Numbered from the stretch's first letter, positions 3,707 to 52,296 are shown. The stretch is 64,000 bases of DNA from Escherichia coli (GCF_013122565.1 NZ_CP053258.1); one strand, 5' to 3'. The notes: generated by a model from the sequence alone, not told the origin. Numbers and translations: made by a program.

Positions 3707-4162
3707 TTAGTACTGATGAGCGGTCGCGTTGTTACCAAAGCCAACCTGAGTCACGTTGACGGAGGAGTTAGATGCAGTCTGGTCAACTGCAGCACCGTTG
3801 CCACCACCGAACTGTTTAACCGTCATTTCAGAATTTTTGCCGTTCCACTGATCAAGAGTAGCGCTGTTACCGAAGCCACGTTGGGTCAGATCGATTGAGC
3901 TGTCATCCGAGCCCTGACCAACATCTGCACCATTACCGCCGCCATGCTGGGTAATAGTCAAGTCAGAGTTACGGGCATCAGTTTGCAGAGCAAGTGCAGA
4001 GTTACCGCCACCGTACTGGTAAATGTTCAGCTCAGAATTTGGGCCGCTATTATTACCGCCACCACCGTGGTTACCGCCGCCGCCGTACTGAGGAACAACA
4101 CCTGCCAGAGCGCTACCGGAGAATACGATTGCTGCAATTGCTGCTACTTTTAAAAGTTTCAT
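3707..4162 (-). CDS. csgA: Major curlin subunit CsgA
   Basis: 151 aa, signal peptide, five imperfect S-x5-Q-x-G-x-G-N-x-A repeats. Matches recalled K-12 CsgA. Confidence 0.97.
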   Translation of the reverse strand: MKLLKVAAIAAIVFSGSALAGVVPQYGGGGNHGGGGNNSGPNSELNIYQYGGGNSALALQTDARNSDLTITQHGGGNGADVGQGSDDSSIDLTQRGFGNSATLDQWNGKNSEMTVKQFGGGNGAAVDQTASNSSVNVTQVGFGNNATAHQY

Positions 4163-4202
4163 GTAAAACCCCCATCGGATTGATTTAAAAGTCGAATGGA
4201 AA

Positions 4203-4658
4203 TTAACGTTGTGTCACGCGAATAGCCATTTGCGACTGTCTCTGCACTACAATTGCCGTTTTTTGAGTACCATACTGTGTAATATTTGCTTTATTACCAG
4301 AACCTTTCTGGATAATCATCGCAGTATTACCATAAGCACCTTGCGAAATACTGGCATCGTTGGCACTGCCCGCCTGATCAATATATGCAAGGTTATAATC
4401 TCCTGTCTGGTCAATCTTTGCCCGGTTGCTACTACCTTCTTGCGCAACAACCGCCAAAAGTTTTGAGCCTCCCTGCCGTAACTGAGCACTATTATTAGTC
4501 CCAGCTTGACCAATTATGGCTGCCTGATTAAATGAAGACTTACTCAATTCATTTACCGCGAAGTTATATTCTGAATTAGCTAAATCATAACCTGCTGCGG
4601 CTGCAATCCCAGGCGCACCCAGTATTGTTAACATCATAAATAACAATTTGTTTTTCAT
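4203..4658 (-). CDS. csgB: Minor curlin/nucleator CsgB
   Basis: Start at MKNKLLFMMLTILG gives the 151-aa K-12 CsgB. Curlin repeats are present. Confidence 0.95.
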   Translation of the reverse strand: MKNKLLFMMLTILGAPGIAAAAGYDLANSEYNFAVNELSKSSFNQAAIIGQAGTNNSAQLRQGGSKLLAVVAQEGSSNRAKIDQTGDYNLAYIDQAGSANDASISQGAYGNTAMIIQKGSGNKANITQYGTQKTAIVVQRQSQMAIRVTQR

Positions 4659-5410
4659 GTTGTCACCCTGGACCTGGTCGTACATTTAAGAAATTAAATC
4701 ATTTCAACTTGGTTGTTAACGCAACCTGTATTTTGTTAACGCTGCGTTACGATGGAAAGTATGTCTGCGGAAATATTTTTAATAACTCACCCGCGCGTTG
4801 TATTTTTCTTTTTTTGTTCATACCAAAGTATTAAAAGCCACGTAAATACGCTGTTATCTACGCAAAAAATATTTTGTTTTCTTTTAAATCTCCGTTTCCG
4901 CTATCAAAAATCACCAGACAGTCATTCTTCTTGCCCGTCGCTGATTGCTGCGATATGTCTTGCGCACAAGCCGTGACAAACCTCGTCTTTTTGCAGTAAA
5001 AAATTGTCCACGGAGGTGTGGAGAAAAAACAACAACTTTTTACATGACGAAAGGACTACACCGAAATATTTTTTATATGCATTATTAGTAAGTTATCACC
5101 ATTTGTATGATTTTTTAAAATTGTGCAATAAAAACCAAATGTACAACTTTTCTATCATTTCTAAACTTAATAAAACCTTAAGGTTAACATTTTAATATAA
5201 CGAGTTACATTTAGTTACATGTTTAACACTTGATTTAAGATTTGTAATGGCTAGATTGAAATCAGATGTAATCCATTAGTTTTATATTTTACCCATTTAG
5301 GGCTGATTTATTACTACACACAGCAGTGCAACATCTGTCAGTACTTCTGGTGCTTCTATTTTAGAGGCAGCTGTCAGGTGTGCGATCAATAAAAAAAGCG
5401 GGGTTTCATC
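4659..5410. promoter_or_regulatory. Divergent csgB / csgD intergenic regulatory region
   Basis: ~750 bp AT-rich spacer between the divergent csgBAC and csgDEFG operons. From established knowledge this is a multi-regulator hub (OmpR, CpxR, IHF, H-NS, MlrA, RpoS). Confidence 0.85.
5204..5229 (+). promoter_or_regulatory. Probable OmpR-binding box of the csgD promoter
   Basis: Tandem GTTACAT repeats (gttacatttagttacatgtttaacac) about 180 bp upstream of the csgD ATG. Matches my recollection of the csgD OmpR site. Confidence 0.5.
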
Positions 5411-6061
<651 letters not shown>

Positions 6062-6065
6062 AGCC

Positions 6066-6455
6066 ATGAAACGTTATTTACGCTGGATTGTGGCGGCAGA
6101 ATTTCTGTTCGCCGCAGGGAATCTTCACGCCGTTGAGGTAGAAGTCCCGGGATTGCTAACTGACCATACTGTTTCATCTATTGGCCATGATTTTTACCGA
6201 GCCTTTAGTGATAAATGGGAAAGTGACTATACGGGTAACTTAACGATTAATGAAAGGCCCAGTGCACGATGGGGAAGTTGGATCACTATAACGGTCAATC
6301 AGGACGTTATTTTCCAGACTTTTTTATTTCCGTTGAAAAGAGACTTCGAGAAAACTGTCGTCTTTGCACTGATTCAAACTGAAGAAGCACTAAATCGTCG
6401 CCAGATAAATCAGGCGTTATTAAGTACGGGCGATTTGGCGCATGATGAATTCTAA
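6066..6455 (+). CDS. csgE: Curli secretion specificity factor CsgE
   Basis: 129 aa with signal peptide. Second gene of csgDEFG. Confidence 0.95.
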
Positions 6456-6479
6456 ATAAAAAATTGTTCGGAGGCTGCA

Positions 6480-6896
6480 ATGCGTGTCAAACATGCAGTA
6501 GTTCTACTCATGCTTATTTCGCCATTAAGTTGGGCTGGAACCATGACTTTCCAGTTCCGTAATCCAAACTTTGGTGGTAACCCAAATAATGGCGCTTTTT
6601 TATTAAATAGCGCTCAGGCCCAAAACTCTTATAAAGATCCGAGCTATAACGATGACTTTGGTATTGCAACACCCTCAGCGTTAGATAACTTTACTCAGGC
6701 CATCCAGTCACAAATTTTAGGTGGGCTACTGTCGAATATTAATACCGGCAAACCGGGCCGCATGGTGACCAACGATTATATCGTTGATATTGCTAACCGC
6801 GATGGTCAATTGCAGTTGAACGTGACAGATCGTAAAACCGGACAAACCTCGACTATCCAGGTTTCGGGTTTACAAAATAACTCAACCGATTTTTAA
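6480..6896 (+). CDS. csgF: Curli nucleation/assembly factor CsgF
   Basis: 138 aa with signal peptide. Third gene of csgDEFG. Confidence 0.95.
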
Positions 6897-6922
6897 GCCC
6901 CAGCTTCATAAGGAAAATAATC

Positions 6923-7756
6923 ATGCAGCGCTTATTTCTTTTGGTTGCCGTCATGTTACTGAGCGGATGCTTAACCGCCCCGCCTAAAGAAGCCGCCAGA
7001 CCGACATTAATGCCTCGTGCTCAGAGCTACAAAGATTTGACCCATCTGCCAGCGCCGACGGGTAAGATCTTTGTTTCGGTATACAACATTCAGGACGAAA
7101 CCGGGCAATTTAAACCCTACCCGGCAAGTAACTTCTCCACTGCTGTTCCGCAAAGCGCCACGGCAATGCTGGTCACGGCATTGAAAGATTCTCGCTGGTT
7201 TATACCGCTGGAGCGCCAGGGCTTACAAAACCTGCTTAACGAGCGCAAGATTATTCGTGCGGCACAAGAAAACGGCACGGTTGCCATTAATAACCGAATC
7301 CCGCTGCAATCTTTAACGGCGGCAAATATCATGGTTGAAGGTTCGATTATCGGTTATGAAAGCAACGTCAAATCTGGCGGGGTTGGGGCAAGATATTTTG
7401 GGATCGGTGCCGACACGCAATACCAGCTCGATCAGATTGCCGTGAACCTGCGCGTCGTCAATGTGAGTACCGGTGAGATCCTCTCCTCGGTGAACACCAG
7501 TAAGACGATACTTTCCTATGAAGTTCAGGCCGGGGTTTTCCGCTTTATTGACTACCAGCGCTTGCTGGAAGGGGAAGTGGGTTACACCTCGAACGAACCC
7601 GTTATGCTGTGCCTGATGTCGGCTATCGAAACAGGGGTCATTTTCCTGATTAATGATGGTATCGACCGTGGTCTGTGGGATTTGCAGAACAAAGCAGAAC
7701 GGCAGAATGACATTCTGGTTAAATACCGCCATATGTCGGTTCCACCAGAATCCTGA
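6923..7756 (+). CDS. csgG: Curli outer-membrane secretion channel lipoprotein CsgG
   Basis: 277 aa with a lipobox (LLSGC). Fourth gene of csgDEFG. Confidence 0.97.
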   Translation: MQRLFLLVAVMLLSGCLTAPPKEAARPTLMPRAQSYKDLTHLPAPTGKIFVSVYNIQDETGQFKPYPASNFSTAVPQSATAMLVTALKDSRWFIPLERQGLQNLLNERKIIRAAQENGTVAINNRIPLQSLTAANIMVEGSIIGYESNVKSGGVGARYFGIGADTQYQLDQIAVNLRVVNVSTGEILSSVNTSKTILSYEVQAGVFRFIDYQRLLEGEVGYTSNEPVMLCLMSAIETGVIFLINDGIDRGLWDLQNKAERQNDILVKYRHMSVPPES

Positions 7757-7762
7757 CAGATA

Positions 7763-7792
7763 AAAATGCCGGAATTAATAATCCGGCATTTT
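7763..7792. terminator. Bidirectional hairpin terminator between csgG and ycdZ
   Basis: aaaatgccgga-attaataa-tccggcatttt, with A/T runs on both sides, between convergent genes. Confidence 0.7.
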
Positions 7793-7820
7793 ACTGTTTA
7801 AGCGAAAGCGTGAGTGCCCC

Positions 7821-8312
7821 TCACGCTTTATTTTTGATTTCCTGCTCACGGTGAGCCGTCTTTGCACTACGCGCCGCCAGCCACAGGCCGCTGTTTTTCA
7901 TTGCGTAACCAAATACCAGCCCAAGCGCCAGCGAAGGTAACACCAGTTTCCAGTCACCCTGCCCGGCAAACGTCGCGCATGCGCCTATAAACGTCCCCGG
8001 AACAAATGAAAGCAGCAGCTGTTTGGCCTGAATACACATCAGAAACGCGACAATACCGGTTATGACATAACCGAGAATTTCCAGATGTGGTGCCAGTGCA
8101 CTACCGTAAATAATGACCATCGCCCACACCACGCCACTAAGCAGGGTTGCAGCGGAGATCGCCAGCCCTTTCAGCCCACCTTGCGGGCAGGCAAAGTAGG
8201 CCGTACAGCCCAGGAAGCCCGCCCAGCTTAGTAAGCCCAGGGAAACAGCCACCCATCCCCAGATACCGGAGAGAATGCCTGTTGTGATTGCAATAGAGAG
8301 AAGTATGTTCAT
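7821..8312 (-). CDS. ycdZ: Inner-membrane protein YcdZ (DUF1097-like)
   Basis: The internal Met (MNILLSIAITTG...) gives the 163-aa K-12 length. Multi-TM protein. Confidence 0.85.
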   Translation of the reverse strand: MNILLSIAITTGILSGIWGWVAVSLGLLSWAGFLGCTAYFACPQGGLKGLAISAATLLSGVVWAMVIIYGSALAPHLEILGYVITGIVAFLMCIQAKQLLLSFVPGTFIGACATFAGQGDWKLVLPSLALGLVFGYAMKNSGLWLAARSAKTAHREQEIKNKA

Positions 8313-8413
8313 GCCGCGCATGATAGCAGAAAACGCGGCCATGAATGAGATCGAGCACACATTTTATGCAACAACAAATTATCCGTTGCAGTCATGAGTG
8401 ACGAAGATCACAT

Positions 8414-8968
8414 TTACTCTTCAGAATCCTCTTCCAGCTCGTCCCACATTGCACTAATGGCATCGCGGGTTAGCGGTGCCATGGTGCGCCAGAAAGGCGT
8501 GGTTGCATGGGCCTCCACTTTGCCAAGGAACGCGCCACACCAGGGTAACAGATACTCACTGAACAGTGTTTCCAGTGCTTCGCTCTCATCTTCCGTTGAC
8601 TGATCTTCCAGCCAGGAAGCCGCAAGCAGCAATGTGCCGATGTGATCGGCTGGCGTATCTGCTAATGGCATCCCTCGTTCAGAAAGAAAAGCGCGCACTT
8701 CCGCTTCCGTTGCGTCCTCAACCCATGCGCTACGATATGGCGGCACGGCACATTCATCGCCGATAAACAACGCATTGTAATCGGCAGAGACTTGCGCCAT
8801 ATCACAGCTTTTCTGTAAACGTGTCAGTAACTCATCCTGCTCCAGTGGCCAGTTCGCAGCCAGTTTCCCCTCACGAATCAGGGTAAACAACGGCACCAGT
8901 AAAGGATCTTGCGGTTGGCGGTAATAGAGCGAACCCAGCACACGACAGAGGATAGAAAACTCGTTCAT
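8414..8968 (-). CDS. ycdY: TorD-family redox-enzyme maturation chaperone YcdY
   Basis: 184 aa, in the K-12 position and operon with ycdX. Confidence 0.85.
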   Translation of the reverse strand: MNEFSILCRVLGSLYYRQPQDPLLVPLFTLIREGKLAANWPLEQDELLTRLQKSCDMAQVSADYNALFIGDECAVPPYRSAWVEDATEAEVRAFLSERGMPLADTPADHIGTLLLAASWLEDQSTEDESEALETLFSEYLLPWCGAFLGKVEAHATTPFWRTMAPLTRDAISAMWDELEEDSEE

Positions 8969-10955: not shown

Positions 10956-11043
10956 GGTGAGGTGTCCGAGTGGCTGAAGGAGCACGCCTGGAAAGTGTGT
11001 ATACGGCAACGTATCGGGGGTTCGAATCCCCCCCTCACCGCCA
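10956..11043 (+). tRNA. serX: tRNA-Ser (anticodon GGA)
   Basis: 88 nt: GGTGAGGTG acceptor, long variable arm, anticodon loop cCTGGAAAg, T-arm GGTTCGAATCC, terminal CCA. K-12 position beside ghrA. Confidence 0.95.
11030..11043 (+). repeat. attL core: 14-bp direct repeat (ccccctcaccgcca) forming the 3' end of serX
   Basis: An identical 14-mer recurs at 42413-42426 on the same strand. Confidence 0.8.
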
Positions 11044-11049
11044 GATTAC

Positions 11050-21779: not shown

Positions 21780-22800
21780 AATCATTAATCGCAGTGCGTA
21801 AAAAGCCCTTATTTTCCCGTTGAGTTCATAATCAAAATGGTTGTACTCTCGTATCGGCCAGAAACCACCGTAGCGAAACTTACTCGTGAGCATGGGATCA
21901 ACAATAATCTACTGTTCAGGTGATACCAGTACTGCTACAAAGGAAAACTACGCCTCCTTCAGCAATAGAAAACAACGTGGCAGCACAGCTCCCCATAACA
22001 CTTAATGCCGAATAGCTTGTCCCTACAACATTCTCCTGGTCACAACTTGTAGCTGCTGAGGCGCCCAAATCACTCAATATCAGCTGTAAAGCGACATTCC
22101 GGCACCGATCACTCCGGCTAAATGGTTCCGTCAGGGACAAAGATCTAGCAGGTCGCTGGCATCACCGATATGAGAAACGGCTTCAACACTGTTCTGCAGG
22201 TGGATATGTACGCCGTGTTCAACGAGCTGTACCACGATGGGCAGATAACGGAAACAGCCTGCTGGGCTCACGTCGTCGCAAGCTCCACGATGCGCACATT
22301 CGCACTCCGTCTGCGTTGACGGAGGAATCCCTGAAACAGATCGGCGAGTTGTATGCCATTGAGGCGGAAATAAAGGAGGATGCCGACAAAACTAAACCGT
22401 GCAGAACGTTAGCAAAAAGCTAAAGTGCGACTGATATCCCTAGCAAGAAGCTGGCTGAGTAAAAAGATGAAAACGTTATCGCGGCTGGCGAAAGTGTTCA
22501 CGTATTTACTGAATCAGCAGCCGGCGCAGGCTAACAATACTGAAGGTGAAAGATCCGAAGCAAATAACAACATTGCTGATAATGGCCAGTCTAGACCACA
22601 AAAACTAACTATTCTTCAGTTCGGAGCACGGGGAAAGCGATGAGCTCTGCTGTACAGTCTCATCAGGGCGATCAAACTGAACGATATTAATCAACGGCGC
22701 AACCTGAGTTATGTGCTTGACGTAATCGCCGACTATCTTATACACCGGGTCACTAAACTACTCCCCTAGCGCATAGCACTGCCAACTGATTAACATATCT
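21780..22800 (+). pseudogene. IS66-family remnant (tnpA fragment plus degenerate 3' half of tnpC)
   Basis: Reads ...LTREHGINNNLLF (tnpA-like), then LQVDMYAVFNELYHDGQITETACWAHV...RTPSALTEESLKQIGELYAIEAEIK (tnpC motifs), broken by many stops. Confidence 0.6.
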
Positions 22801-23992
22801 CCCTCAATATGGTTCTCGCTACACGCTTACATATATTTAAGTATAAAATATAAACATATAAACTAAAAACATTAAACACCAAAAAAAACAAAAAAAACAT
22901 ATACATATAAATTTAAAATCTTTTAAAGTGTAAGAAATCAGAATAAAAACCTGATCTTATAAAGATGGAAACTATAATATTCCAAATTAAAAAATAAAGG
23001 AGTAAATTAACAAACAAGCTAAACAAACCATCAAATTCCGCATAATACACAGCATGGAAATAGATATTGAATGAGCATGCCAATATTGGTATGCGAATGC
23101 TGGCGGTAGCAGTAAAAAAGAAAAATGGTGGGGCGGATGTAGCAGGAGAGCCATATAAAATGCAAATAAAAGACTACCAATATGATAATCAAGGAAAGAT
23201 CAGTAATGATTCCAAATATTCATATTCATATTCATATGCTGACATGATGTCGACTTCTCCTTTTTTCAACCCATTTTTGATACGAAAGCATTGTATTATT
23301 GGTGCTGAAATCTTATGCAGAGTTCAAACGCAAAACAGTTATATATTAAATCAGTTTCATAGCATGAGATTTAAAGACTGAAATTTGGATGTTTATGCTG
23401 TACAGTCGCTATCTAAAACTAGAGAGCATTTATGTGAAAATGAATATCATCTTCCTTAAGGTTTTACTATTACATTAAATGTTACGAGTTCACAAGTTTG
23501 CTCTCCTTTAATAAGAAAGATAGTGCTTTATTTTAACAAAAGATTCACCTCAGGCATCTTCATTATATTTGAGCCTATGGTAGAAAATTCAGTGAGCAGC
23601 ACGTATACAAGGTTATATCTTCACCGGATCATTGGCTGTAAGTGGTATCTTATTTTAGAGTCAGAAAAAAGACATTGGTACGATAAAGGGCTTTCTTATA
23701 AACATTGATACAATTTCACCTGCAAAAATTATTATGCTAAGTTTCATCGAACGCCTTGTCTCTCGTTCTTTCTCTTTTTTCAAAGACGGCAATCCTGTCT
23801 TACACAGAAGATTAAATCTTCATGACAAAAATACAAGTTATTTCAAGAGAGGTGCATATCAGAAAATAATGATTGAGAGTGATAGTTAAGCATATTTCAT
23901 CACTAAGGCGATGAATAATATCTGTGGAGATATTGTTAAATAGTTAACTTTTTAGCAATAATTATTGTTTCATATACTTTAAGGATAATGTT

Positions 23993-41047: not shown

Positions 41048-42251
41048 TCACCATCTTTTTGGATTACTGGGAAGTTGTGACATCACATAATCCGCCCACG
41101 CCTGCATCATCGGTATATGCTGATCCAGTAGATCAGTCCGGTGATATGCTGCCTCAACCTTATTTTTCAGCGTGTGGGCAAGCGCCCTTTCCGCCAAATC
41201 CCTGTTCACTACACCAGTCCCTGAATGTTGAACGAAAACCATGTGCTGTTGCCACCCGTCCGGGTATATCACTGATGGCATTCTTTTTACGCAGAAAACT
41301 CGTCAACACCATATCTGAAAGGATCTGCTGCTTTCTGGGAGAAGGAAACACCAGTTCATCATGCAAACCACGTATATTTTCCAGAACGTGAATGGCCTGC
41401 CGGGATAAAGGAATACGATGCTGTATCCTAGCTTTCATTCTTTCTGCTGGTATCGTCCATATCCGCTTATGAAAATCAATTTCAGCCCAGCGCATTCCCC
41501 TGGCTTCGCCCGAACGGGTTGCTGTAAGTATCACCATTAATAACAGTGCTCGGGTAACATTATAAGGTTCATCTGTATACACGCTTGTCGCCACAAACAG
41601 CGGTAATTGCCTCCAGGGCATTGCCGGCTGATGTTCATCACGTCCTCTTGATTGCTGTGGAAGCAAATGTTCAACCACATCAACAGGATTTGCCACACAA
41701 AAACCATGCGCCCAGCCCCACTGCATAACAACATGAATACGCTGTTTAATCCGGCTTGCCGTTTCTGATAAGGTCAACCAGATTGGACGCAGTGTCTCTG
41801 CCACGTCCGCAGCCGTAATCTCATTCAGCGTTTTTGCTCCCAATTGAGGAAACACGTAATTTTCAAGCGTCGACAACCACTGCCTGACATGCTTTGGATT
41901 TTCCCATCCCGGTGACAATTCTGCATGTACACGCATGGCTGCATCGGCAAATGTTGGGATAACAACTTTTTCAGCTTCAGCCTTTTTGATCTCCAGAGGA
42001 TCATCACCTGCAGCAAGTTGCTCTCGCATTATCCGGGCAGTACGTGCAGCTTCGGCAATACTGACCTCAGGGTAAGTTCCCAATCCAGCATTACGCCTTT
42101 TTTGTGTCACCGGACTTACATAACGAAAAACCCATTTACCCCGCCCCTTTACTGAAGAAGGATGAAGGGTCAGCCCTGTAATTCCCCCATGAGGCAATGG
42201 TTTGTCATCAGGTTTGATATGCCTTGCTTTTGTATCAGTCAATACTGCCAT
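41048..42251 (-). pseudogene. P4-type tyrosine integrase, frameshifted before the catalytic Tyr region
   Basis: The 363-aa frame carries R (TATRSGEARGMRW) and HGFRSTFRDW, then goes out of frame near 41200-41215. A second frame (41048..41281) carries RDLAERALAHTLKNKVEAAYHRTDLL. Confidence 0.8.
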
Positions 42252-42412: not shown

Positions 42413-42426
42413 CCCCCTCACCGCCA
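42413..42426 (+). repeat. attR core: displaced copy of the serX 3' end (ccccctcaccgcca)
   Basis: 14/14 identity with 11030-11043. Followed by its own terminator hairpin. Confidence 0.8.
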
Positions 42427-42441
42427 TATTTAAATAAATAT

Positions 42442-42508: not shown

Positions 42509-43213
42509 GCGCACACGATCTGACATTTGCATCCAACTTCGTTACTTACGGCCCGTAAACGGGCTGCCCGGATAGGGAATCGATAACTGCTCTCCCATTT
42601 CATCCTCTTCAAGCTGGTGCTTTATGTAATCCTGTATCTTCGCCGTGTTCTTACCCACCGTATCGACGTAATACCCTCTGCACCAGAACTCCCTGTTCCT
42701 GTATTTGAATTTCAAATCCCCAAACTGCTCATAAAGCATCAGACTGCTTTTCCCTTTCAGATATCCCATAAAGCCGGATACGCTCATTTTGGGCGGGATC
42801 TCCACAAGCATATGGATATGATCTGCACAGCATTCAGCTTCAAGAATCCGTACGCTTTTCCACTCACACAGCTTTCTCAAAATACTGCCTATTGCTCTAC
42901 GCTTCTCTCTGTAGAACACTTGTCTTCGGTATTTTGGCGCAAAAACTATGTGATATTTACAGTTCCATCGGGTGTGCGCTAAGCTCTTTTCGTTCCCCAT
43001 TGGGACCCCCTTTTGATTTCTTGTTTGACACTTGCAGTTGCCAGACCGCAAGGTGTTTTAACAAATCAAAAGGGGTTTTAATAACTGGCTCAAAGCTGAA
43101 AGCTTTCCGGAACCCCCAGTCTAGCTGGGGGTTTTCTGTGCACAAGAAGAGCCCGTACGAAAGTACGGGCTTTTTTTTCGTATATTGCACACACCGGGTG
43201 CCCCCGCCCACGT
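42509..43213 (-). mobile_element. IS200 copy (boundaries approximate)
   Basis: 152-aa Y1/HUH transposase. Upstream hairpins gcccgtac-gaaa-gtacgggc plus T-run and aacccccag...ctgggggtt are typical of the IS200 left end. The span between flanking complementary 11-mers is 705 bp. Confidence 0.6.
42542..43000 (-). CDS. tnpA: IS200 transposase TnpA (HUH/Y1)
   Basis: MGNEKSLAHTRWNCKYHIVFAPKYRR...ADHIHMLVEIPP...GYYVDTVG, 152 aa. The ORF-track N-terminal extension is not used. Confidence 0.9.
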   Translation of the reverse strand: MGNEKSLAHTRWNCKYHIVFAPKYRRQVFYREKRRAIGSILRKLCEWKSVRILEAECCADHIHMLVEIPPKMSVSGFMGYLKGKSSLMLYEQFGDLKFKYRNREFWCRGYYVDTVGKNTAKIQDYIKHQLEEDEMGEQLSIPYPGSPFTGRK

Positions 43214-43329: not shown

Positions 43330-44316
43330 TCACTTATTAAAATGCCCCCAACGGAAATACATGTCACATGCCATCATAAAATCGTTATGCCAGAGGAACC
43401 GACAATGGAAAAAATAGTAAATTAAGCACGGTACATAGCAGAGTAAAAAATAGGCTTCAAACCAAATCCGCCATTCCACAAGCGTTGCCAATACCGACAC
43501 CAGCGTAATCCACATCACTTCAATAACCAGCAATATGAATAACCGAAGCCAAAGCGGCTTGGCAAAAAAGGTCGACAACGCATTTTCACTGGAGAAAAAC
43601 AGATCGATTTCCTGCAAAAAAAGCCTGCCCAGAAAAGCGTACCGCTTGGAGAAGCGCAGAAAAAACAGATTAATCGCCAACACTACGCCACAAAGAATGA
43701 GCAATGCAATTATCGATTTAAACGTTAACCACTGCCCCTCTGTCACAAAAGAGTTACTGTTACGCAACGGGCTGATAGTAAGCAGGTTAACAACCGTTGA
43801 GATACACACCGAAAGCAGCACATAGCGAGTCAGACTTTTATATTTTACTTTTTTCGCTACTGAAATAGCGACCTGCTTGACATAACTGGTGCGGATCATC
43901 CGAAACAACAGAAAGATGACCAACGGCCCAAGTAACGAAATCAGGAACAGCGCATATAACGAGGGTAGAAGCTGGTATAGCCCCCAACTCATTGCACTCA
44001 ACATGATTAACGACAGAAATCCTGCCACCAGAGGTTGTGTAAGAAATAATTCTATTTTGTGGTTCTGCTTTTTCTTAAACCACGAAAAATCGATATTCTT
44101 CGTGACGCATTTATAAGCCCAGTACGCCTTGAGATCAAAAATAAAATTATACAGCACCAGGACCAGAATCCCACTAACTACACCAATATCCTCTGATGGA
44201 AAAGTAAACCCTGCATTTTTCCAATAAAAGCCTATCAGAATAAGTCCAATAGCATAAATGTATATCAGATTTCGTTTATCCTGAAAGCGAATAAAAGTTA
44301 AATAATCAGGAATCAT
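43330..44316 (-). CDS. ycdU: Polytopic inner-membrane protein YcdU
   Basis: 328 aa (the K-12 YcdU length), many TM segments. Its start overlaps the upstream stop by 4 nt. Last gene of the array. Confidence 0.75.
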
Positions 44317-45257
44317 TTGAATACCTTCGCATCACTAAATGCTTTACGACAATGCATAACTCGTTGCTGATCCACGCCAGCAAAATCATTTAACATATTC
44401 CCCAAATAGGGCTTATTACTTATTTCAAGGAAAGCTACCGGGGTTGGCATATTCAGAAATGTATCGAGAGATTCAGTCCATTTCACCGTATGAGTTAAGT
44501 GTAATGAGAGATTTTCTTTGATAATTGACGGAGCGACCTCGCTTTTTGCTGTTACGTTCATCAGAACCTGATGCTCTGGCGAAGCGATATCCAGTCCGGC
44601 AAGATAATCGCGCATTGCCTGAACGCCGTCTTCCATCAAACGCGTGTGCCAGGCACCGCTCACACCGAGTTTAACCGGTTCGTACCCAGCGGCCATCAGC
44701 AGCGTGGCAAATTCATTCAACGCAGTCTGCGTTCCCCCAATAACCTGCTGGCGCGGCGTGTTATCACAGCTAATATCCAGCGCAATGCCTGATTCCGTAA
44801 TCATCGTCTGCAGTTGTTCGCGGTTGATGCCTTTAACCGCCAGCATTGCGCCTTTATTTCTCTGGCTTTCGTCATGCATCAGGCTGGCTCTGAAGTGAAT
44901 CATGCCAAATAGCGTCTCAAGAGAAATAGCTCCAGCGGCGTAGAGCGCACTGTATTCACCAACGCTGTGTCCGCAGGAGCCCACAACCGTTAAATTCTCA
45001 AGACGCTCGCGGCACAGGGTATAGAGCGTTACATTAATTGCGGTCACCGCCAGTTGTTGTACCGTCGTTTGAATAAGGCGATTCATCGGCCCTTTCTGAC
45101 ACAGGCGACGCAGGTTCAGTCCGGAAATATCGCTGGCACAATCCCAGATATGTTTTGTACTGGCGTTGAGATCCCAAAGATCGCTGCCCATACCAATAAC
45201 CGGATTACCCTGACCGGCAAAAAGCAGTACTGTCGGTTGTGAAGCATTATTCATCAT
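44313..45257 (-). CDS. ymdE: FabD-like malonyl-CoA:ACP transacylase, apparently the intact form of K-12 pseudogene ymdE
   Basis: 314 aa. LFAGQGN oxyanion motif, active-site [14 protein letters not shown], and a downstream His (SGAWHTRLM). Confidence 0.8.
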
Positions 45258-45267: not shown

Positions 45268-46656
45268 TTATAGATAGTATTTAAAGCCCAAATAAAGGCC
45301 TAACGTGTCGCCAAAAAGCGCAAATTCAGAATACCGACTTCCCAGCGCGCTATAGCCACCGGCATAGGCTTCAAGCTGGTTACTGATAGCGCTGAGCGGC
45401 GTGGAATAATGCAGGCCCAGCAACGTACTGCCATCAATGAGATTGACCACCAGCGAAGGCTGCAGCGTCGACTCTCCCGCCAGCGGCAGACTGGCCCAGG
45501 CGTTCAGATAGTGCTTACCCTGCAGCATCCCCTGATTGGCGGTATTGCTGATTTCTGAAGCCATCAGGTATTTGTAAGAATCAAATGCCTGATCCAGTGG
45601 CGCATAGCCGGTTGTGGTATTGAGGAAGTCAATTAACTCGCGCTGCTGACGCTGTTCAGCGCGCGAATAACCCTCGCTCTGAAAGTAATACTCAACGCCA
45701 AACACGCTGAAATTATCACTGGTGTACTGCCCACCCAGCGCCAGCTCCACGCCGCTTTCATCTTTCGTTTCATAGAGCGAATCCGGAAACTGATATTCCT
45801 CGACCTGCGCCGTCTCACGGTGGGAAAGATGCCGCCATTGCTGGGAGCGGTGGTAGGCTGCGTCGACATTCAGCGTAAGCTGCGGGGTGTAGTGATAACT
45901 GTCAGACAGCGCGAGTGACGGCGATGGTCCGAGCCGCACATTGACTGTCGGCGTGTGCTCACCAAAGCGATGATCGCTGAAGCTCAGCAGATAGGCTTCG
46001 TCGCTGTTTCCCTGCTGATTAGCCGACCAGTTGCCAGACGTCACATAGCGTTTGTCGATGGTGGCTAACTTCGGTATGACACTCGCCGAAAACGCATAAT
46101 CGCGTGTATCCACGCTCATTTTTGCGCCCCACGATGACGCCTGATACGCCGATGTCATTTTGGGATCGTGCAAACGCGTCGACTGGAATCCAGTGTAATA
46201 ATGCGTTTGCAAATCAGAAGGCGAACGCAAAAAGAACATTCCTGACGGCGCGGCAAATTTGCCTGCTTCAAATTGAACGCTGTCCGAGGCACTATAGACC
46301 AGACTGAAGCGGTTAATTAACGCACGCGTGCGGCTATCATCCGTTTCGAATTTCCCTGCAGGTTTAAGCGCATATTCGTTTATTCCATACAGATTGAGCT
46401 TAAGGTCCAGCGTATTGTCGATTATTGAACAACCACTATTGATGCCAATCCCCGCCTCCTGATAACCGTTGTGACGTGTGTAGGGATTTTTGCCTGCAAT
46501 CTGCCAGGCCGAAGCCTGTTTATTGACATAAGACACCTGCTCGTAGAGCGTCACATCGCTGTTTTGTGCCACCTCGTCACCTGACAGGCAATCCGCCTGT
46601 ACCGTCAACGGCAGCGCAACACACAGCAACGAAGAGATCTTCAGCGTGCGTTTCAT
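45268..46656 (-). CDS. Putative outer-membrane beta-barrel protein
   Basis: 462 aa with signal peptide (LPLTVQA-DC). Tyr/Gly/Ser-rich alternating strands and a C-terminal LGLYLGFKYYL. No family recognised. Confidence 0.5.
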   Translation of the reverse strand: MKRTLKISSLLCVALPLTVQADCLSGDEVAQNSDVTLYEQVSYVNKQASAWQIAGKNPYTRHNGYQEAGIGINSGCSIIDNTLDLKLNLYGINEYALKPAGKFETDDSRTRALINRFSLVYSASDSVQFEAGKFAAPSGMFFLRSPSDLQTHYYTGFQSTRLHDPKMTSAYQASSWGAKMSVDTRDYAFSASVIPKLATIDKRYVTSGNWSANQQGNSDEAYLLSFSDHRFGEHTPTVNVRLGPSPSLALSDSYHYTPQLTLNVDAAYHRSQQWRHLSHRETAQVEEYQFPDSLYETKDESGVELALGGQYTSDNFSVFGVEYYFQSEGYSRAEQRQQRELIDFLNTTTGYAPLDQAFDSYKYLMASEISNTANQGMLQGKHYLNAWASLPLAGESTLQPSLVVNLIDGSTLLGLHYSTPLSAISNQLEAYAGGYSALGSRYSEFALFGDTLGLYLGFKYYL

Positions 46657-47441
46657 TTCGCACCTCGCTGAATATACTCTTTGGTGAAATGAAACTCTGG
46701 CAGCGATTCCAGACGAACATCGCTGTACTCCATCACTGAATAGTTATTGCCGTGACGGACATCGGTAACGGTTATTTTCATGGGTCGCGTTTTCCCCAGC
46801 ACCGGCTGGAAATCCTGATACAACACTTCTTTTATTAACTGGTCATCCTGCGAGTAATAGGCCGCCTTCCACGGGCGATTATCACCGTCTTTTTCAACGT
46901 AATAGATAACCTTCGGCCAGGTGATATCCGCCGATTTACGCACAAGCGCCAGCTTGTAACACTGCTTTTCAGCACAAGAGACTTCCCCCACAAGGGTCGA
47001 GTCATAGGCATATTCAAAGTTAGTGACAATGACATCGCCGTTAGAGATTTGCCCAATTAATCTTTGTTGCCGTGAAATAGGCATCGGACGTCGCAGTTCC
47101 GGCGTGTAAAACCATAAATCGTACCAGTCGGAAAGCATGACTTTTCCTTTATCTCGCGGCGGATAAATAAAACGCACCAGCGAGCGCGCATCCGCTTTTT
47201 CATTACCCAGCGGTTTCATAAAACGCATGGAAATATCGAGGACCTGTTTATTCTCTGGCTGGGTTACGCCCGCTTTATATTCCGTTACCGTCAGCGTGTA
47301 ACGAAACGGTTTATTCGGCGAACGAATTTCGTCAGCGCGACGAATTATATCCAGCGCCTTATTATCTGTGCTCGCCGCCTGAACGCACGACGTAGCGAGC
47401 CACAGGCAAGCAAACCACTTGCCGTAAAAAGCCATATTCAT
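46653..47441 (-). CDS. LolA-like outer-membrane lipoprotein-sorting/carrier protein
   Basis: 262 aa with signal peptide. ALDIIRRADEIRSPNKPF...TLTVTEYK resembles recalled LolA-like proteins encoded beside FtsX-type permeases. Confidence 0.5.
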   Translation of the reverse strand: MNMAFYGKWFACLWLATSCVQAASTDNKALDIIRRADEIRSPNKPFRYTLTVTEYKAGVTQPENKQVLDISMRFMKPLGNEKADARSLVRFIYPPRDKGKVMLSDWYDLWFYTPELRRPMPISRQQRLIGQISNGDVIVTNFEYAYDSTLVGEVSCAEKQCYKLALVRKSADITWPKVIYYVEKDGDNRPWKAAYYSQDDQLIKEVLYQDFQPVLGKTRPMKITVTDVRHGNNYSVMEYSDVRLESLPEFHFTKEYIQRGAK

Positions 47442-47449
47442 AATCAGTC

Positions 47450-48760
47450 CTACGAGAATTTAAATGCGTCAGAAATATTCAGCCGGGAAGCACGTAAAGC
47501 CGGTAACACAGAGGCACCTGTTGCTGTCAAAATAGGTAATACCACCGTCACCCAAATCAATTCCGGGTTACTGGTTTTTATAAAGGCGGTATAGCCGATG
47601 GTTTGTCCCGGCGATGGCGGCATCGCAATACCATAAAGATTAATAATCCAGGCTAGCGCCCCCCCCACCAGTAGGCTACCGACTGCGCCAATCACACCAA
47701 TAAAAATGCCTTCCGTCAGAAACAAGCGCGTGACGTGAAGCGGCTTCAGGCCTATGGCACGCAGAGTGGTAATTTCACGGGTGCGTTCAGCAATGTTCAT
47801 TGCCATCGAATTGCTGATCATGAAGATGACAATCAGCGCAACAATCAGCTTGATGAAGAAATAGATCCCCGACAGTAACCCCTCAACCTGTTGATAAAAG
47901 AGTGAAACATCACGCCAGTCTTTGACCACCAGCGGCAAATGATTGCGTTCAATAAACTGACGCAGCTTAGCGCTAAACGCCGCGGTGTCATCCTCTTTTA
48001 GCAGGATAAGCACTTTGCTGACGCCATCCGTACCCATCATGCGCTGCGCGGTGTCCAGCGGGATCTTCATCGCGACATCGTCATAATCTTTAATGCCTGA
48101 CTCAAAAATGCCACGCAGTTTTAGCGACAATGCGCCCTGCCCGCCCGCCGTGTTGACGACCATCACATCCAGCCAGTCGTCATATTTCGCATTCAACGTT
48201 TTCGCCAGACCGCTGCCCAGGGTGATTTCATCACCTTTTACCCGGGAAAGATCGCTCCCCGCGATAATCTTATCGAACGAGCCCAGCTTTAAAGCGGGTA
48301 ACGGCTCCACCCCTAGCGCGGAGAAATAGCTGGAGGTTTCGCTCTCGTAATGTGAAATTACGCCAGTAAACTCCAGTTGCCCGGAGAGCGTGGAAATATC
48401 CGCCGCCAGCGTCGGGTCCGACAAAATAGCTTTCTTTAACGCCGCATAATCGGCAATCAGGCTCTTATTTTTATTCGACGTTTCAAAATAGTGCTGATTG
48501 TAAATCTGTACATGACCAATATTGGTACGAATCGTCTGCTCTTTCAGGATCCAGAAAGAGTAATCAATAAATCCGCCATATAAAAAAATTGCCACGCCAC
48601 CCAATACAATGGCGGTTATAGTAGAAAAAGAGCGACGCTTGTGGCGAAAGAGATTCAAAAATGCAAATTTGACATCTCGTGAATAAAACAGAAGCTGATA
48701 AAACACAAAAAACAGAATCAGCAGCAGAACGCAATTAACAGCTAAAATTTCCCCGGACAT
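47450..48760 (-). CDS. FtsX/LolCE/MacB-type ABC transporter permease
   Basis: 436 aa: TM1, a ~230-aa periplasmic loop, then 3 C-terminal TMs (...ITTLRAIGLKPLHVTRLFLTEG...). Confidence 0.75.
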   Translation of the reverse strand: MSGEILAVNCVLLLILFFVFYQLLFYSRDVKFAFLNLFRHKRRSFSTITAIVLGGVAIFLYGGFIDYSFWILKEQTIRTNIGHVQIYNQHYFETSNKNKSLIADYAALKKAILSDPTLAADISTLSGQLEFTGVISHYESETSSYFSALGVEPLPALKLGSFDKIIAGSDLSRVKGDEITLGSGLAKTLNAKYDDWLDVMVVNTAGGQGALSLKLRGIFESGIKDYDDVAMKIPLDTAQRMMGTDGVSKVLILLKEDDTAAFSAKLRQFIERNHLPLVVKDWRDVSLFYQQVEGLLSGIYFFIKLIVALIVIFMISNSMAMNIAERTREITTLRAIGLKPLHVTRLFLTEGIFIGVIGAVGSLLVGGALAWIINLYGIAMPPSPGQTIGYTAFIKTSNPELIWVTVVLPILTATGASVLPALRASRLNISDAFKFS

Positions 48761-49417
48761 TTACTCACCTTTCATCAGCGGCAGCAGTACCTGGGTTAAC
48801 TCTTCACTATCCCATTCTGGTACAACATTAAAATCATGCGTCAGCGACTGCGCTAGCGCGGTGTTTTGCCCTTTAATTTGCGCCAACAACGCATTCGCGC
48901 GGGTGGTGTCCTTGCAGTGACGTAATGCGCGATAACGCATCGCCAGAATATGGTCGCGGATCGTTGTCGTCCATATCGCCGGGTCAGCCAGCATGTGTTC
49001 GGTATCTTTGACTGTCACCACGCAACGCCCTGAATCTGCGGGTAAATAGGCATCTACGCGGGCACGTAAATACCGTACGCGTTGATTTTTCTCCTGCAAA
49101 TCCACCGCTTCATCCAGCCAGAAAAAGCCGCTTTTGGCGTATTCTGAGGCATGGATAAAATCGTTTGTTGCCGCATAACTGTCTGCCTGACGCAGTAAGC
49201 CATAGGCATAAAAAACCAGCGCCACCACATTGTGCCTGGCGTCATACTCTTTCTTTAACGCCTCGGTCAGCATCGCCAGCGCGGCAGGCTGCGCCGGGAG
49301 CCCCTGTTGCAGAACCTGGTTAACGGCGTCGGGTGTTGCCGCGTAAATCTTCGGGGCCAAAAACGCCGCGTACAAAAAGACGCCGATGAGCAAAAATCCT
49401 TTATGCATCTGAGTCAT
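48761..49417 (-). CDS. Exported helical protein, unknown function
   Basis: 218 aa with signal peptide (FLAPKIYA-ATP). Its stop abuts the permease start and its start overlaps the ATPase stop by 17 nt. Confidence 0.5.
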   Translation of the reverse strand: MTQMHKGFLLIGVFLYAAFLAPKIYAATPDAVNQVLQQGLPAQPAALAMLTEALKKEYDARHNVVALVFYAYGLLRQADSYAATNDFIHASEYAKSGFFWLDEAVDLQEKNQRVRYLRARVDAYLPADSGRCVVTVKDTEHMLADPAIWTTTIRDHILAMRYRALRHCKDTTRANALLAQIKGQNTALAQSLTHDFNVVPEWDSEELTQVLLPLMKGE

Positions 49418-50108
49418 GAATCAATACTCCATCCTGAATTTCAACCACTCGCCGTGCCCGCGCTTTTAATTCGCTGGAGTGCGTGGAAATAACAAATGTG
49501 GTGCCTGTCTGCTGATTAATCGTCAACAGCAGGTCCAAAATAGCCTCGCCGGTTGACAGGTCTAAATTTCCCGTCGGTTCATCGGCAATGACCACCATCG
49601 GTTCGTGTGCCAGTGCCCGGGCGATGGCGACACGCTGTTGTTGACCGCCCGATAGTTGCCCAGGTTTGCGATCGCCAAAACCGCTTAATCCGACGCTATC
49701 GAGATAATGCAGCGTCCGTTCAGTGGCTTCTTTTTTACTGAACTGGCCATTAAGCACCAATGGGAAATAAACGTTATCGAAAACATTTAATACCGGCATA
49801 AGATTAAAAAACTGAAAAATAAAACCCAGATGTTTTCCACGAATCACAGCTAACTGCTCTTCCGGCAGTTGGTTCAGTAATTTATTTAAAAATATCACCG
49901 TTCCGCTGGTCGGTTTATCAATACCCGAGAGAATATTCAACAGAGTACTTTTACCACTGCCTGATGGCCCACACAGTGCGAGAAATTCGCCTTTATTGAT
50001 ATCAAGATTAATGCTTTTAAGCGCATCAACCTTTCCTGCCCCGGCACCATAACACTTGTAAATGTTGCTAAGCGAAATAGCGGGCAACGATTTAATAGTA
50101 GATTGCAT
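49401..50108 (-). CDS. ABC transporter ATP-binding protein (LolD/MacB-NBD type)
   Basis: Walker [10 protein letters not shown], signature [15 protein letters not shown], Walker [13 protein letters not shown]. Start taken at MQSTIKSL; the track start lies inside the upstream gene. Confidence 0.88.
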
Positions 50109-50118: not shown

Positions 50119-51072
50119 TTATCCTTCAAGGTATTCAAGGTCAAAGTAGTGATAACCAAACTGTTTATCGGCAATGACCGTACGCATTTTTCCACCGGGC
50201 TGAATATGACGGGTTAAATAATCCATACTCAGCGCGGGCGTCAGACAACCGCTTTCTCCGTAATGGGCTACCAGGTCGATAACGCCAGCAGCAGGCCGGG
50301 ACGGCATTTGTCGCCGTTCGCTGAAGGCCATGACATCAATATCCGTAGCATGCTGTGGCGCAGTGCCGGAATGATATTCCCCGCATTGCAGCCTGATGGC
50401 GCTCTCACGCTGGCTGAGAATAAAACAACCCACGCGTTCAACAGATAAATTCACCTCATCAGCACGACGGGGGAATAAACGCTTAGGCGGTTTACCCACA
50501 TCCTCTTCAGAGAATACCAGTACCGGAATTGCCCGATAGGCAGCGCAAATCACCACGTTATCGAATACATCCCAGGCGAGATAATCCTGCGCCATACGCA
50601 GCGCCTGAACGAATGCCTGTTTTTCGCCACGAATTTTGCAAGTCGGCTCAGTTATCGAAAACTTCTTAAGTAAATTCTTGGGAAGCGTATCAATAGTGGC
50701 GATATGCAGCGCACTGGAAATTTTTTCAAACGGACCGGATTCGCCCCAGGAATCGGCATAAATAAATGCCGTGCGCGATTTCATTAACTTCATGCGTTCT
50801 TTAGTCGGCATTTGTTGTAATGCAGAATCGGTCACCTGCTCCATCGCCTCAAGGTAAGGCATATATTGCGGATTACGGATCCGTTCCGGCGCATAAATAT
50901 CGTTCTCAACGCCAAAGCGCTTCAGCCCCCAGCCATTAGCACGGGTGCCATATAATCCTCTTTCGTACATATGTGCTTCCCAGGCGTTGAGCCAGGTCGG
51001 CTGATAAAAATAAAAAATGTCGTCCGGTTCCGTAAGCGCCCAGGAAGACAGGTAGATACTCTTTTCCGTCAT
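50119..51072 (-). CDS. Unassigned 317-aa protein, possibly a KS N-terminal-like/thiolase-fold accessory
   Basis: ATGA overlap with the upstream KS gene. The N-terminal IYLSSWAL strand resembles KS-N-like accessory proteins (weak, from recall). No active-site motif seen. Confidence 0.3.
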   Translation of the reverse strand: MTEKSIYLSSWALTEPDDIFYFYQPTWLNAWEAHMYERGLYGTRANGWGLKRFGVENDIYAPERIRNPQYMPYLEAMEQVTDSALQQMPTKERMKLMKSRTAFIYADSWGESGPFEKISSALHIATIDTLPKNLLKKFSITEPTCKIRGEKQAFVQALRMAQDYLAWDVFDNVVICAAYRAIPVLVFSEEDVGKPPKRLFPRRADEVNLSVERVGCFILSQRESAIRLQCGEYHSGTAPQHATDIDVMAFSERRQMPSRPAAGVIDLVAHYGESGCLTPALSMDYLTRHIQPGGKMRTVIADKQFGYHYFDLEYLEG

Positions 51073-52292
51073 TTCGCGCGCCCCGCTTGCATATTTGACA
51101 TAACAACGCCAATAACCGAACCATCGACACCCACACCAACCTTCAGCAAATGGCGTTTGCTATGGTTTGTCACGCTGCCGTCCGTAAGTACCAGCGAAGC
51201 CATGCTGTCGATAATGACGTCGTTACCAACAGGTGCGATCAGTTGATGATGCGTCAACGAATGGTGGCCAATGATCAGATCGACAACACCGGATCCGGTT
51301 GCGGTATAGCCGATCTGCCCTTTATAGGCGAGAACGGGGATCTGCCGCTCCCCTGCGAACATGGTGATGGCTTTGGCTTCCGCGTTATCGCTCACTGCCG
51401 AACCGTTGCCGTGTGGAAGAATGGCTGCAAGATCATCCAGCGCAATTTCAGCCTGCTTCATCGCGGCCTGCATGACCTTGTGCACGTTAGTGCTAAGCCA
51501 GGAGGCATCGTTGCTGCGGCCCGCGCTGATTTGGGTGTAAGTCGTTTGCACCCTTACGCCCTCACTTTGTTGACGCGCCCGGCGGTGATGAGCGCTTTCC
51601 AGTAGGAGCGCGCTAAAACCTTCTGCGAACGCCACACCTTTACTGTTTTCACCAAACGGCTGAACCTGTTCGCTGTCCAGCATCGATTGCGTTTCCAGGA
51701 ACCAGATATCCTGGGTTTTAATTTTCGAACAGTTCAGCACAATCGCGAGATCAATCCCGCCCTGCTCAATGCCCTGCGTCGCCAGATGCACCGCAGTCAG
51801 TGACGAGTTACTGGTGCAGTTCATGTTAGGCGGCAAATACTGCAAGCGATATTTGCGCGCAAGATGGCTTGAAATCGTGTCCTGCGACATCTTTGAGGCA
51901 TGCAGATTTGTGATGGATTGCGTTAAGTTGATATCTTCTACATCGTTGTAATTATAGAAAGATTTGTAATCCAGCCCGTCGATACGCGGCCCAATACCGG
52001 TCAGATAAACGCGAACGTTGCGCCCGGCCAGGCAATGCTTATCCAGCATTGCCTGTTCCAGGGCTTCGTCGATCAACTGAGACAGCAGGTCCAATGCGCT
52101 ATCGTCCACCTGTTTCAACGTCGCCACTGACGGATTACCCTTAAACCCGCATTTAATGGCTTCCTCGTTGGAGGTAAACCAGGGTGTACGCGCAACGCGT
52201 TTCCCCTGTTTCAGATTGTCAATTAACTGCGAACAGTCTTCGGCATACGGCATCCACACGCTGTAACCCGAAATAATAGCGGCATTGTCCAC
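51069..52292 (-). CDS. Beta-ketoacyl synthase-like protein with a Cys-His-Tyr triad
   Basis: NMNCTSNSSLTAVHLA (Cys), LPHGNGSAVSDNAE (His), KGQIGYTATGSG (Tyr where the second His is expected). GTG start at 52292 after aaggga; the track ATG lies inside the upstream gene. Confidence 0.7.
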   Translation of the reverse strand: MDNAAIISGYSVWMPYAEDCSQLIDNLKQGKRVARTPWFTSNEEAIKCGFKGNPSVATLKQVDDSALDLLSQLIDEALEQAMLDKHCLAGRNVRVYLTGIGPRIDGLDYKSFYNYNDVEDINLTQSITNLHASKMSQDTISSHLARKYRLQYLPPNMNCTSNSSLTAVHLATQGIEQGGIDLAIVLNCSKIKTQDIWFLETQSMLDSEQVQPFGENSKGVAFAEGFSALLLESAHHRRARQQSEGVRVQTTYTQISAGRSNDASWLSTNVHKVMQAAMKQAEIALDDLAAILPHGNGSAVSDNAEAKAITMFAGERQIPVLAYKGQIGYTATGSGVVDLIIGHHSLTHHQLIAPVGNDVIIDSMASLVLTDGSVTNHSKRHLLKVGVGVDGSVIGVVMSNMQAGRAK

Positions 52293-52296
52293 AGTC

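Follow-up and report, generated by a model that had tools for sequence, protein, structure and literature searches.

The movement of specialized lipids other than lipoproteins from the inner to the outer membrane of Gram-negative bacteria is largely unexplained. Type VII ATP-binding cassette (ABC) transporters such as MacB and LolCDE act by mechanotransmission and do not flip their substrates, and DevBCA-HgdD, the heterocyst glycolipid exporter, is a precedent for a transporter of this type dedicated to a glycolipid derived from a polyketide synthase (PKS). The best-known candidates for moving such lipids, proposals only, are the Lol-like genes of pigment clusters: ApeL (LolA-like), ApeM (RND/MMPL), and ApeN (LolB-like, DUF3261) of the aryl polyene (APE) sets in Escherichia coli CFT073 and O-island (OI) 138, along with LolA2 and LolB2 of flexirubin clusters, have been proposed to deliver pigment lipids to the outer membrane (PMC8253772; bioRxiv 10.1101/2020.12.19.423268; PMC11885536). 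Here we analyze a 64,000-nt stretch of E. coli DNA (GCF_013122565.1, NZ_CP053258.1; the whole stretch is called the window), in which a sequence-only reading had described five consecutive genes as a Lol/MacB-like export module dedicated to a lipid cluster. The genes encode an ABC ATPase, a tetratricopeptide repeat (TPR)-like protein, an FtsX/MacB-type permease, a LolA-superfamily protein, and a predicted outer-membrane β-barrel. We consider it probable, with real room for doubt, that they form a Lol-like route across the envelope that is dedicated to one pathway and moves the hydrophobic product of the type II fatty acid synthase (FAS)/PKS-like operon in which they lie.

Results

Predicted components for each envelope compartment

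All five open reading frames (ORFs) were recovered by an ORF scan at window positions 45268-50108 on the minus strand, and the same five coding sequences are annotated by RefSeq on a 99.9%-identical E. coli chromosome, so the coordinates and gene list given earlier are correct (Table 1). A longer, GTG-started ATPase ORF overlaps the upstream gene.

The ATPase carries a complete set of motifs (Walker A GPSGSGKS, Q-loop, signature LSGGQ, Walker B VVIADE, and H-loop) and matches PF00005 (E 1e-35), as the sequence-only reading had proposed. In NCBIfam it scores highest on LolD (227.7 bits; cut-off 307.75), and it shares 42% identity with LolD of E. coli K-12; all of its curated matches (LolD, YbbA, DarD, MacB, FtsE, and DevA) fall under the equivalog cut-offs. 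The permease contains FtsX (PF02687, residues 302-429, E 7e-18) and MacB_PCD (PF12704, residues 44-268, E 6e-9) domains and scores 91.5 bits on the lolCE model, whose cut-off is 362.45. Its closest solved chains are LolE (6e-14; 23% identity across 255 residues) and the homodimeric LolF (9e-13), followed by YtrF, LolC, MacB, and FtsX. Four hydrophobic segments (residues 47-65, 295-313, 352-370, and 401-419) enclose, between the first two, a periplasmic domain of about 225-230 residues, in line with the large periplasmic loop reported earlier. The pair thus has the features of a type VII (MacB/FtsX-fold) system, namely the motifs of the nucleotide-binding domain (NBD), a four-helix FtsX domain, and a large periplasmic domain between transmembrane helices TM1 and TM2. 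Since there is one permease gene, analogy with LolF implies a homodimer. An extra hydrophobic helix at residues 5-23, which LolC and LolE lack, precedes the canonical TM1, and the tblastn alignment to a diverged homolog starts at permease residue 9, so this N-terminal region is conserved. The extra helix would put the N-terminus of the permease in the periplasm.

True orthology to LolCDE was rejected on these bit scores and on the lack of LolB; no LolB/DUF3261-type gene was found in the operon, nor were RND/MMPL transporter domains of the kind found in the APE set. The label “Lol/MacB-like” therefore holds for the architecture, whose nearest relatives are LolD, LolE, and LolF, and does not extend to membership of either the Lol or the MacAB system. 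MacAB-TolC was rejected because the scores lie below the equivalog cut-offs and no gene from tpsA to ycdU encodes a membrane-fusion protein or a TolC-family partner. The same absence of an adaptor and a TolC-type duct argues against a reading of the five genes as an efflux or self-protection pump akin to MacAB-TolC or DevBCA-HgdD, with the barrel as the exit from periplasm to medium for the product, possibly toxic and diffusible, or for other hydrophobic compounds. The MacB-type architecture, and the ATPase scores on the MacB, DarD, and DevA models, speak for such a pump, which on all the evidence, including that given below, we consider unlikely.

Membership of the 262-aa protein in the LolA superfamily, claimed earlier from its sequence, is confirmed: it matches PF17131 LolA_like (E 2.6e-36; 125.4 bits against a cut-off of 30) and PDB 3BUU (“LolA superfamily protein NE2245”; E 3.5e-34 over 231 residues, 29-259). 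In E. coli, LATSC would pass as a loose lipobox; Cys19 is missing in most orthologs, however, and a lipoprotein was rejected. Because the orthologs have ordinary signal peptides with type I cleavage motifs on sequence inspection and the cysteine is not conserved, the protein is predicted to be soluble and periplasmic. A soluble carrier of this superfamily, always present, suits the shuttling of an insoluble cargo rather than a continuous duct and thus argues against a pump.

Inspection of the 262-aa, 218-aa, and 462-aa sequences found N-terminal signal peptides, kept in orthologs, in all three, as expected of non-cytoplasmic soluble or outer-membrane proteins. The 218-aa protein had no NCBIfam family and no credible Pfam match up to E 10; its signal peptide and putative TPR-like helical repeats agree with the earlier description of an exported helical protein.

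The 462-aa protein likewise has no NCBIfam match and nothing credible in Pfam to E 10. An AlphaFold2 model built from a 36-sequence alignment (predicted local distance difference test score 89.3; predicted template modeling score 0.85) forms a closed barrel of 18 β-strands, in which the even-numbered connections are 3-7 residues long and the odd-numbered loops are long, the classical pattern of outer-membrane proteins. With a signal peptide ending in VQA before DC and a C-terminal G-x-x-Y-x-L that resembles a β-signal, the protein has the features of an 18-stranded porin-like fold; it did not match the profile of the OprD/Occ porin family. Its nearest structural neighbors are the substrate channels Occ/OprD and ChiP and the polysaccharide exporters AlgE and Wzi; it matches monomeric 18-strand porins and not TolC. 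The confident model and these neighbors bear out the proposal of an outer-membrane barrel, as far as a predicted structure can.

The likeness to open channels (Occ, ChiP, and AlgE) would also suit a pump. That the top structural matches are substrate-specific uptake channels, and that no starter unit has been assigned to the pathway, would fit uptake or salvage, in which the porin-like barrel and the periplasmic protein import an external precursor or starter unit. The periplasmic partner has a LolA fold and is not a solute-binding protein, and to our knowledge no type VII (FtsX/MacB) ABC system is an importer; import is the least likely of the alternatives and highly improbable.

Two barrel cysteines, C23 directly after the signal peptide and C76, are near-invariant even in 25%-identical relatives. 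The residues preceding C23 are lipobox-like (A-[GSA]-C) in about 9 of 30 orthologs and read A-D-C in E. coli and many others, and the barrel was judged unlikely to be a lipoprotein. Since both cysteines are near-invariant, a disulfide would fit better than a lipid anchor. With Asp at −1 of this Cys, no clear lipoprotein was seen among the proteins of the E. coli operon. The most conserved barrel sequence, E322-YY-Q-EGYS (E322-S331) together with Y363-L...E368...N371, maps in the model to where strand 13 ends and to two helices inserted in loop 7, and is a candidate functional element.

A component is therefore predicted for every compartment (a cytoplasmic NBD, an inner-membrane permease, two periplasmic proteins with signal peptides, and an outer-membrane barrel), which supports the earlier proposal of a complete set of parts from inner membrane through periplasm to outer membrane; the route itself we infer.

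Conservation of the operon and a recurrent four-gene core

A pattern scan with one genome per species recovered 30 loci, among them loci from Enterobacter, Kosakonia, Klebsiella, Mixta, Rahnella, Serratia, Izhakiella, Acinetobacter, and a Neisseria. The order acp-gcvT-KSKS-KS-317-ABC-TPR-FtsX-LolA-barrel-fabD-ycdU, where KS is ketosynthase and 317 a gene for a 317-aa protein, is identical in all 30. Identity to the window proteins is 71-86% for the KS fusion, 66-84% for the permease, and 68-80% for the ATPase, and falls to 43-64% for the barrel, 42-57% for the TPR-like protein, and 39-55% for YcdU, so that conservation is lowest in the envelope-exposed components. On these sequences we judge the five genes to be real and under selection. 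A profile of the barrel alignment searched against 1.84 billion representative proteins returned 56 relatives only, and a metagenome scan with a 4-sequence alignment returned two loci. A metagenomic contig that encodes a distant barrel relative (30% identical) carries a diverged copy of the cluster with the order kept and an extra short-chain dehydrogenase/reductase (SDR) gene between permease and carrier.

Beyond these loci, tblastn of the carrier against plasmids found homologs at 24-35% identity on unrelated replicons, and six contexts were inspected (Paraburkholderia ginsengisoli, an E. coli IncK plasmid, Aliiroseovarius crassostreae, Burkholderia gladioli, Plesiomonas shigelloides, and Haematospirillum jordaniae). 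Each has the carrier gene between an FtsX permease gene on its 5′ side and a gene for a 400-480-aa “hypothetical protein” on its 3′ side, and the five intact ones begin with an ABC ATPase gene; the Haematospirillum cassette is degraded, with a permease fragment only, no annotated ATPase gene, and a split downstream gene. The downstream hypothetical proteins are remote homologs of the barrel in five of five tested (hhalign probability 87-98.9%, up to 340 aligned columns), a relationship visible only by gene context and hhalign. From these comparisons, ATPase, permease, PF17131 carrier, and barrel are recognized as a conserved four-part machine of Alpha-, Beta-, and Gammaproteobacteria, and the recurrence of the order ABC-FtsX-LolA_like-barrel in distant homologs is independent support for the four proteins working together. 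The TPR-like gene lies outside this core and is an addition of the operon type found here; a 220-aa protein encoded 5′ of the ATPase gene in the E. coli IncK-plasmid cassette matches the TPR-like family weakly (probability 67%) and may be a remote equivalent. On the E. coli IncK2/Z plasmid NZ_CP060058.1, positions 1-8705 hold a second, unrelated cluster with genes for a KS-like protein, a PfkB kinase, a hypothetical protein, ABC, FtsX, LolA_like, a barrel homolog, and a crotonase, and thus with this export core of four genes.

The neighbors of the cassettes fall into two groups, biosynthetic genes (cytochrome P450, phosphopantetheinyl transferase, KS, and crotonase) or two-component systems. 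Histidine-kinase and response-regulator genes adjoin three of the six distant cassettes, as is often the case for resistance pumps, which is a further point for efflux. Because the core also stands beside two-component systems without obvious biosynthetic genes, the machine appears to be generic and its dedication to a product to depend on context. The claim that the five genes are dedicated to the lipid cluster is thus upheld for this operon by their mid-operon position and their invariant synteny with KS, ACP (acyl carrier protein), and FabD genes in 30 species and the metagenomic copy, and does not apply to the core itself.

Operon embedding and predicted product

The five genes are tightly packed. 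The ATPase gene follows the 317-aa gene after a 10-nt gap and overlaps the 218-aa gene by 17 nt; there is a 0-nt gap to the permease gene, an 8-nt gap to the LolA-like gene, a 4-nt ATGA overlap with the barrel gene, and a 10-nt gap to the fabD-like gene. Such spacing is compatible with the translational coupling proposed earlier. The same packing runs through the whole operon of ~15-17 genes, so the five genes are a block in a longer transcription unit and not a unit of their own. The operon reads tpsA, tpsB, acpS, SDR ketoreductase, FabZ-like, ACP, GcvT-like, KS-KS (the second resembling a chain-length factor, CLF), KS, 317-aa, the five genes, FabD-like, and ycdU, which places the block between the 317-aa and KS genes upstream and the FabD-like and YcdU genes downstream.

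Domain and profile searches recognized no enoyl reductase, thioesterase, or lipid acyltransferase among the operon proteins, which makes a partly reduced and unsaturated chain, acyl or polyketide, the probable product. It is unusual for a type II FAS/PKS-like operon with no detected enoyl reductase or thioesterase to encode a protein of the GcvT family (folate-binding aminomethyltransferase). The 317-aa protein, encoded between the KS and ATPase genes in 30 of 30 loci (48-66% identity), had no relative in sequence searches of Pfam (to E 10), NCBIfam, or the PDB; some of its orthologs are labeled “ATP-binding protein” by the NCBI annotation pipeline PGAP. YcdU had no credible Pfam match up to E 10.

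Table 1 Positions in the 64,000-nt window of the five genes, the operon around them, and neighboring features
Feature	Coordinates	Strand	Remarks
ABC ATPase, LolD/MacB/DevA-like, 235 aa	49401..50108	-	ATG at 50108 is the RefSeq start
Secreted, putative TPR-like helical-repeat protein, 218 aa	48761..49417	-	No Pfam or NCBIfam family
FtsX/MacB-type permease (type VII ABC transporter membrane subunit), 436 aa	47450..48760	-	PF02687 and PF12704
Permease residues 1-23 (extra helix)	48692-48760	-	
LolA-superfamily periplasmic protein, 262 aa	46653..47441	-	PF17131 LolA_like / TP_0789-like
Predicted 18-stranded outer-membrane β-barrel, 462 aa	45268..46656	-	Unannotated family
Barrel C23	46588-46590	-	Directly after signal peptide
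FabD-like malonyl transacylase	44313-45257	-	Operon downstream part; PF00698; fabD model 177 bits
Polytopic membrane protein YcdU	43330-44316	-	Operon downstream part; at least 6 hydrophobic segments
AcpS, SDR ketoreductase, FabZ-like dehydratase, ACP, GcvT-like, KS-KS(CLF-like) fusion, KS, 317-aa protein	50119..58123	-	Operon upstream part
317-aa protein	50119-51072	-	
GcvT-family protein	54929-56089	-	
TpsB	58139-59758	-	ShlB/POTRA_2 domains; two-partner secretion pair heading the unit
TpsA	59847-63659	-	TPS/Fil_haemagg domains; two-partner secretion pair heading the unit
Segment matching the K-12 ymdE-ycdU stump	43330-44660		Positions 5504-6900 of the K-12 locus sequence
IS200-family transposase gene	42542-43051		Y1_Tnp, E 5e-38; IS200C in a near-identical genome
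Distal 18-nt repeat of serX 3′ end	42413-42430		
P4-type integrase	41160-42251		
Proximal 18-nt repeat of serX 3′ end	11030-11047		
tRNA-Ser(GGA) serX	10956-11043		

Distribution, mobility, and linkage to two-partner secretion

Of 5426 complete E. coli genomes, 380 (about 7%), O145:H28 chromosomes among them, carry the 14.5-kb cluster at a coverage of at least 80%. Carriers include O157:H7, O55:H7, and O145:H28, the EDL933 O157:H7 record has the barrel and carrier genes, and the cluster represents, in O157:H7, the “adhesin plus polyketide/fatty-acid” portion of O-island 47 (OI-47). Published work on OI-47 centers on the regulator GrvA (PMC8565820, PMC10877973). Our searches found no informative literature on this operon, on PF17131/FtsX cassettes, or on TP0789.

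In K-12 the pseudogene ymdE (b1028) and ycdU (b1029) are the stump of the operon: directly following IS3D, the DNA matches the 3′ part of the fabD-like gene and ycdU at 99% identity. As only these sequences are retained, everything upstream, the five export genes included, has been lost. The ymdE-ycdU pair was flagged as a clade marker in a mastitis-genomics paper without the operon context (PMC4951805). In the window, an 18-nt direct repeat of the serX 3′ end (17/18 identical) flanks a 31.4-kb insertion between serX and ycdU, which are only 0.7 kb apart in K-12. The insertion carries a P4-type integrase and a DUF3987 gene and is a separate island that abuts the lipid operon; an IS200-family transposase gene lies between its distal repeat and ycdU.

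Two-partner secretion (TPS) genes accompany the operon well beyond E. coli. A gap of 16-18 nt separates acpS from a ShlB-type tpsB immediately 5′ of it in Neisseria sp., Acinetobacter equi, and Aeromonas veronii, and tpsA-tpsB precede acpS on plasmids of Rahnella sikkimica and Enterobacter bugandensis. Thus tpsB or tpsA-tpsB stand upstream of acpS in E. coli and in five of five other taxa with a visible flank, on the same strand and with a gap of about 14-18 nt. On the E. bugandensis IncFII plasmid, two identical IS6-family transposase genes (291-983 and 22509-23201) flank exactly tpsA...ycdU, 17 genes, which suggests that the whole unit moves as a composite transposon. From this gene order, we read tpsA-tpsB-acpS...ycdU as traveling as one unit.

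The linkage opens a further alternative, in which the module serves two-partner secretion, its cargo being a lipid attached to TpsA or needed for the activity or anchoring of TpsA, so that the unit is “TpsA plus its lipid”. In addition to the adjacency in E. coli and five other taxa and the exact enclosure of tpsA...ycdU by IS6 genes, the TPS domain of TpsA matches FHA (8e-36) and HpmA (2e-33) and so resembles both FHA and the lipid-dependent ShlA/HpmA hemolysin class. Against this, TpsA is already served by Sec and TpsB as a route of its own, a lipobox cysteine is absent from its N-terminus, no protein acyltransferase was recognized, and the generic four-gene cassette is found elsewhere without TPS genes; moreover, co-location is linkage and not mechanism. 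We regard a lipid serving TpsA as improbable. The connection to TpsA drawn in the sequence-only reading gains support as genetic linkage, which makes its lipidated TpsA a real, if improbable, alternative.

Discussion

Because the predicted parts reach from the cytoplasm to the outer membrane and the core genes are inherited together, a Lol-like relay is the best reading of the five genes. We infer the cargo, the direction of transport, the order of hand-over, and the role of the TPR-like protein as follows. An ATPase dimer would drive a homodimeric MacB/LolF-type permease, whose periplasmic domain, by analogy with LolCDE and MacB, would pull a lipidic molecule from the outer leaflet of the inner membrane with no transport across the bilayer. 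As type VII transporters do not flip substrates, another protein must present the product at that leaflet; YcdU, polytopic and the invariant terminal gene product, is a candidate for placing the product in the inner membrane, a step that another protein may perform instead. The soluble LolA-superfamily protein would then take the cargo and shield it through the periplasm, and the 18-stranded barrel, in the place of LolB, would receive it and either insert the lipid into the outer membrane or free it at the surface. The TPR-like protein may be a periplasmic adaptor or scaffold that docks the carrier or the barrel, as in AlgK/AlgE, or, like pilotins, a pilotin or assembly chaperone for the barrel.

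Several points weigh against this relay. The structural neighbors of the barrel (Occ/OprD, ChiP, AlgE, and Wzi) are not known lipid inserters, and the evidence for its fold is a predicted structure. The two-component neighbors without obvious biosynthetic genes suit an efflux or stress role of the generic machine just as well. In the cluster we recognized no acyltransferase, glycosyltransferase, or thioesterase for membrane-lipid synthesis, and reviews of OI-47 treat only GrvA and not the lipid part (PMC8565820, PMC10877973).

The locus offers a compact, genetically tractable E. coli case with a clear parts list that includes two unannotated protein families. K-12, with only the ymdE′/ycdU stump, is a natural null host; canonical lolCDE is essential, and host strains should keep these genes. 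Through the linkage to an adhesin- or hemolysin-type TpsA, the product and its export route could affect surface properties or virulence. The four-gene core is also a handle for annotating genes labeled “hypothetical protein” or “outer membrane lipoprotein-sorting protein” in other Proteobacteria. More speculatively, and with rather doubtful prospects, the core may be a widespread, unrecognized proteobacterial trafficking machine for specialized lipids that parallels Lol with a barrel for LolB; its cargo in the OI-47-type unit would be a polyketide-like lipid functionally coupled to TpsA (activation, anchoring, or modification), making the 17 genes tpsA-ycdU one mobile “lipid-armed two-partner secretion” system in enterohemorrhagic E. 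coli O157:H7.

To judge by the literature searchable here, neither the combination of an ABC transporter with a barrel nor the two unannotated families nor the recurrent core of four genes has been described, and each known system resembles the locus in part. The likeness to the polymer exporters AlgK/AlgE, PgaA, BcsC, and PelB, which combine a TPR module with an outer-membrane barrel, is at the level of the fold only (sequence identity ~10%); at this locus the TPR gene is coupled with the ABC genes instead of the barrel gene, and a polysaccharide synthase is lacking. MacAB-TolC and DevBCA-HgdD share the type VII ABC architecture, and the ATPase matches the DevA and MacB models, but those tripartite systems include a membrane-fusion protein and a trimeric duct of the TolC type, and this locus encodes neither. 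The APE and flexirubin sets, whose delivery role is only proposed, likewise place a LolA-type carrier inside a Gram-negative type II PKS/FAS-like lipid cluster; they differ in their RND/MMPL energizer, their LolB-like acceptor, and their lack of a TPR protein, whereas this locus has an ABC/FtsX pair and a barrel. The Lol systems, LolCDE-LolA-LolB and LolDF, have in common with it a separate ATPase and FtsX/MacB_PCD permease and a soluble LolA-superfamily periplasmic partner. Unlike Lol, the module described here uses a PF17131 carrier rather than canonical LolA, is followed by an 18-stranded barrel instead of a LolB-like lipoprotein, adds a TPR-like protein and an N-terminal permease helix, and is encoded inside a biosynthetic operon on a mobile island.

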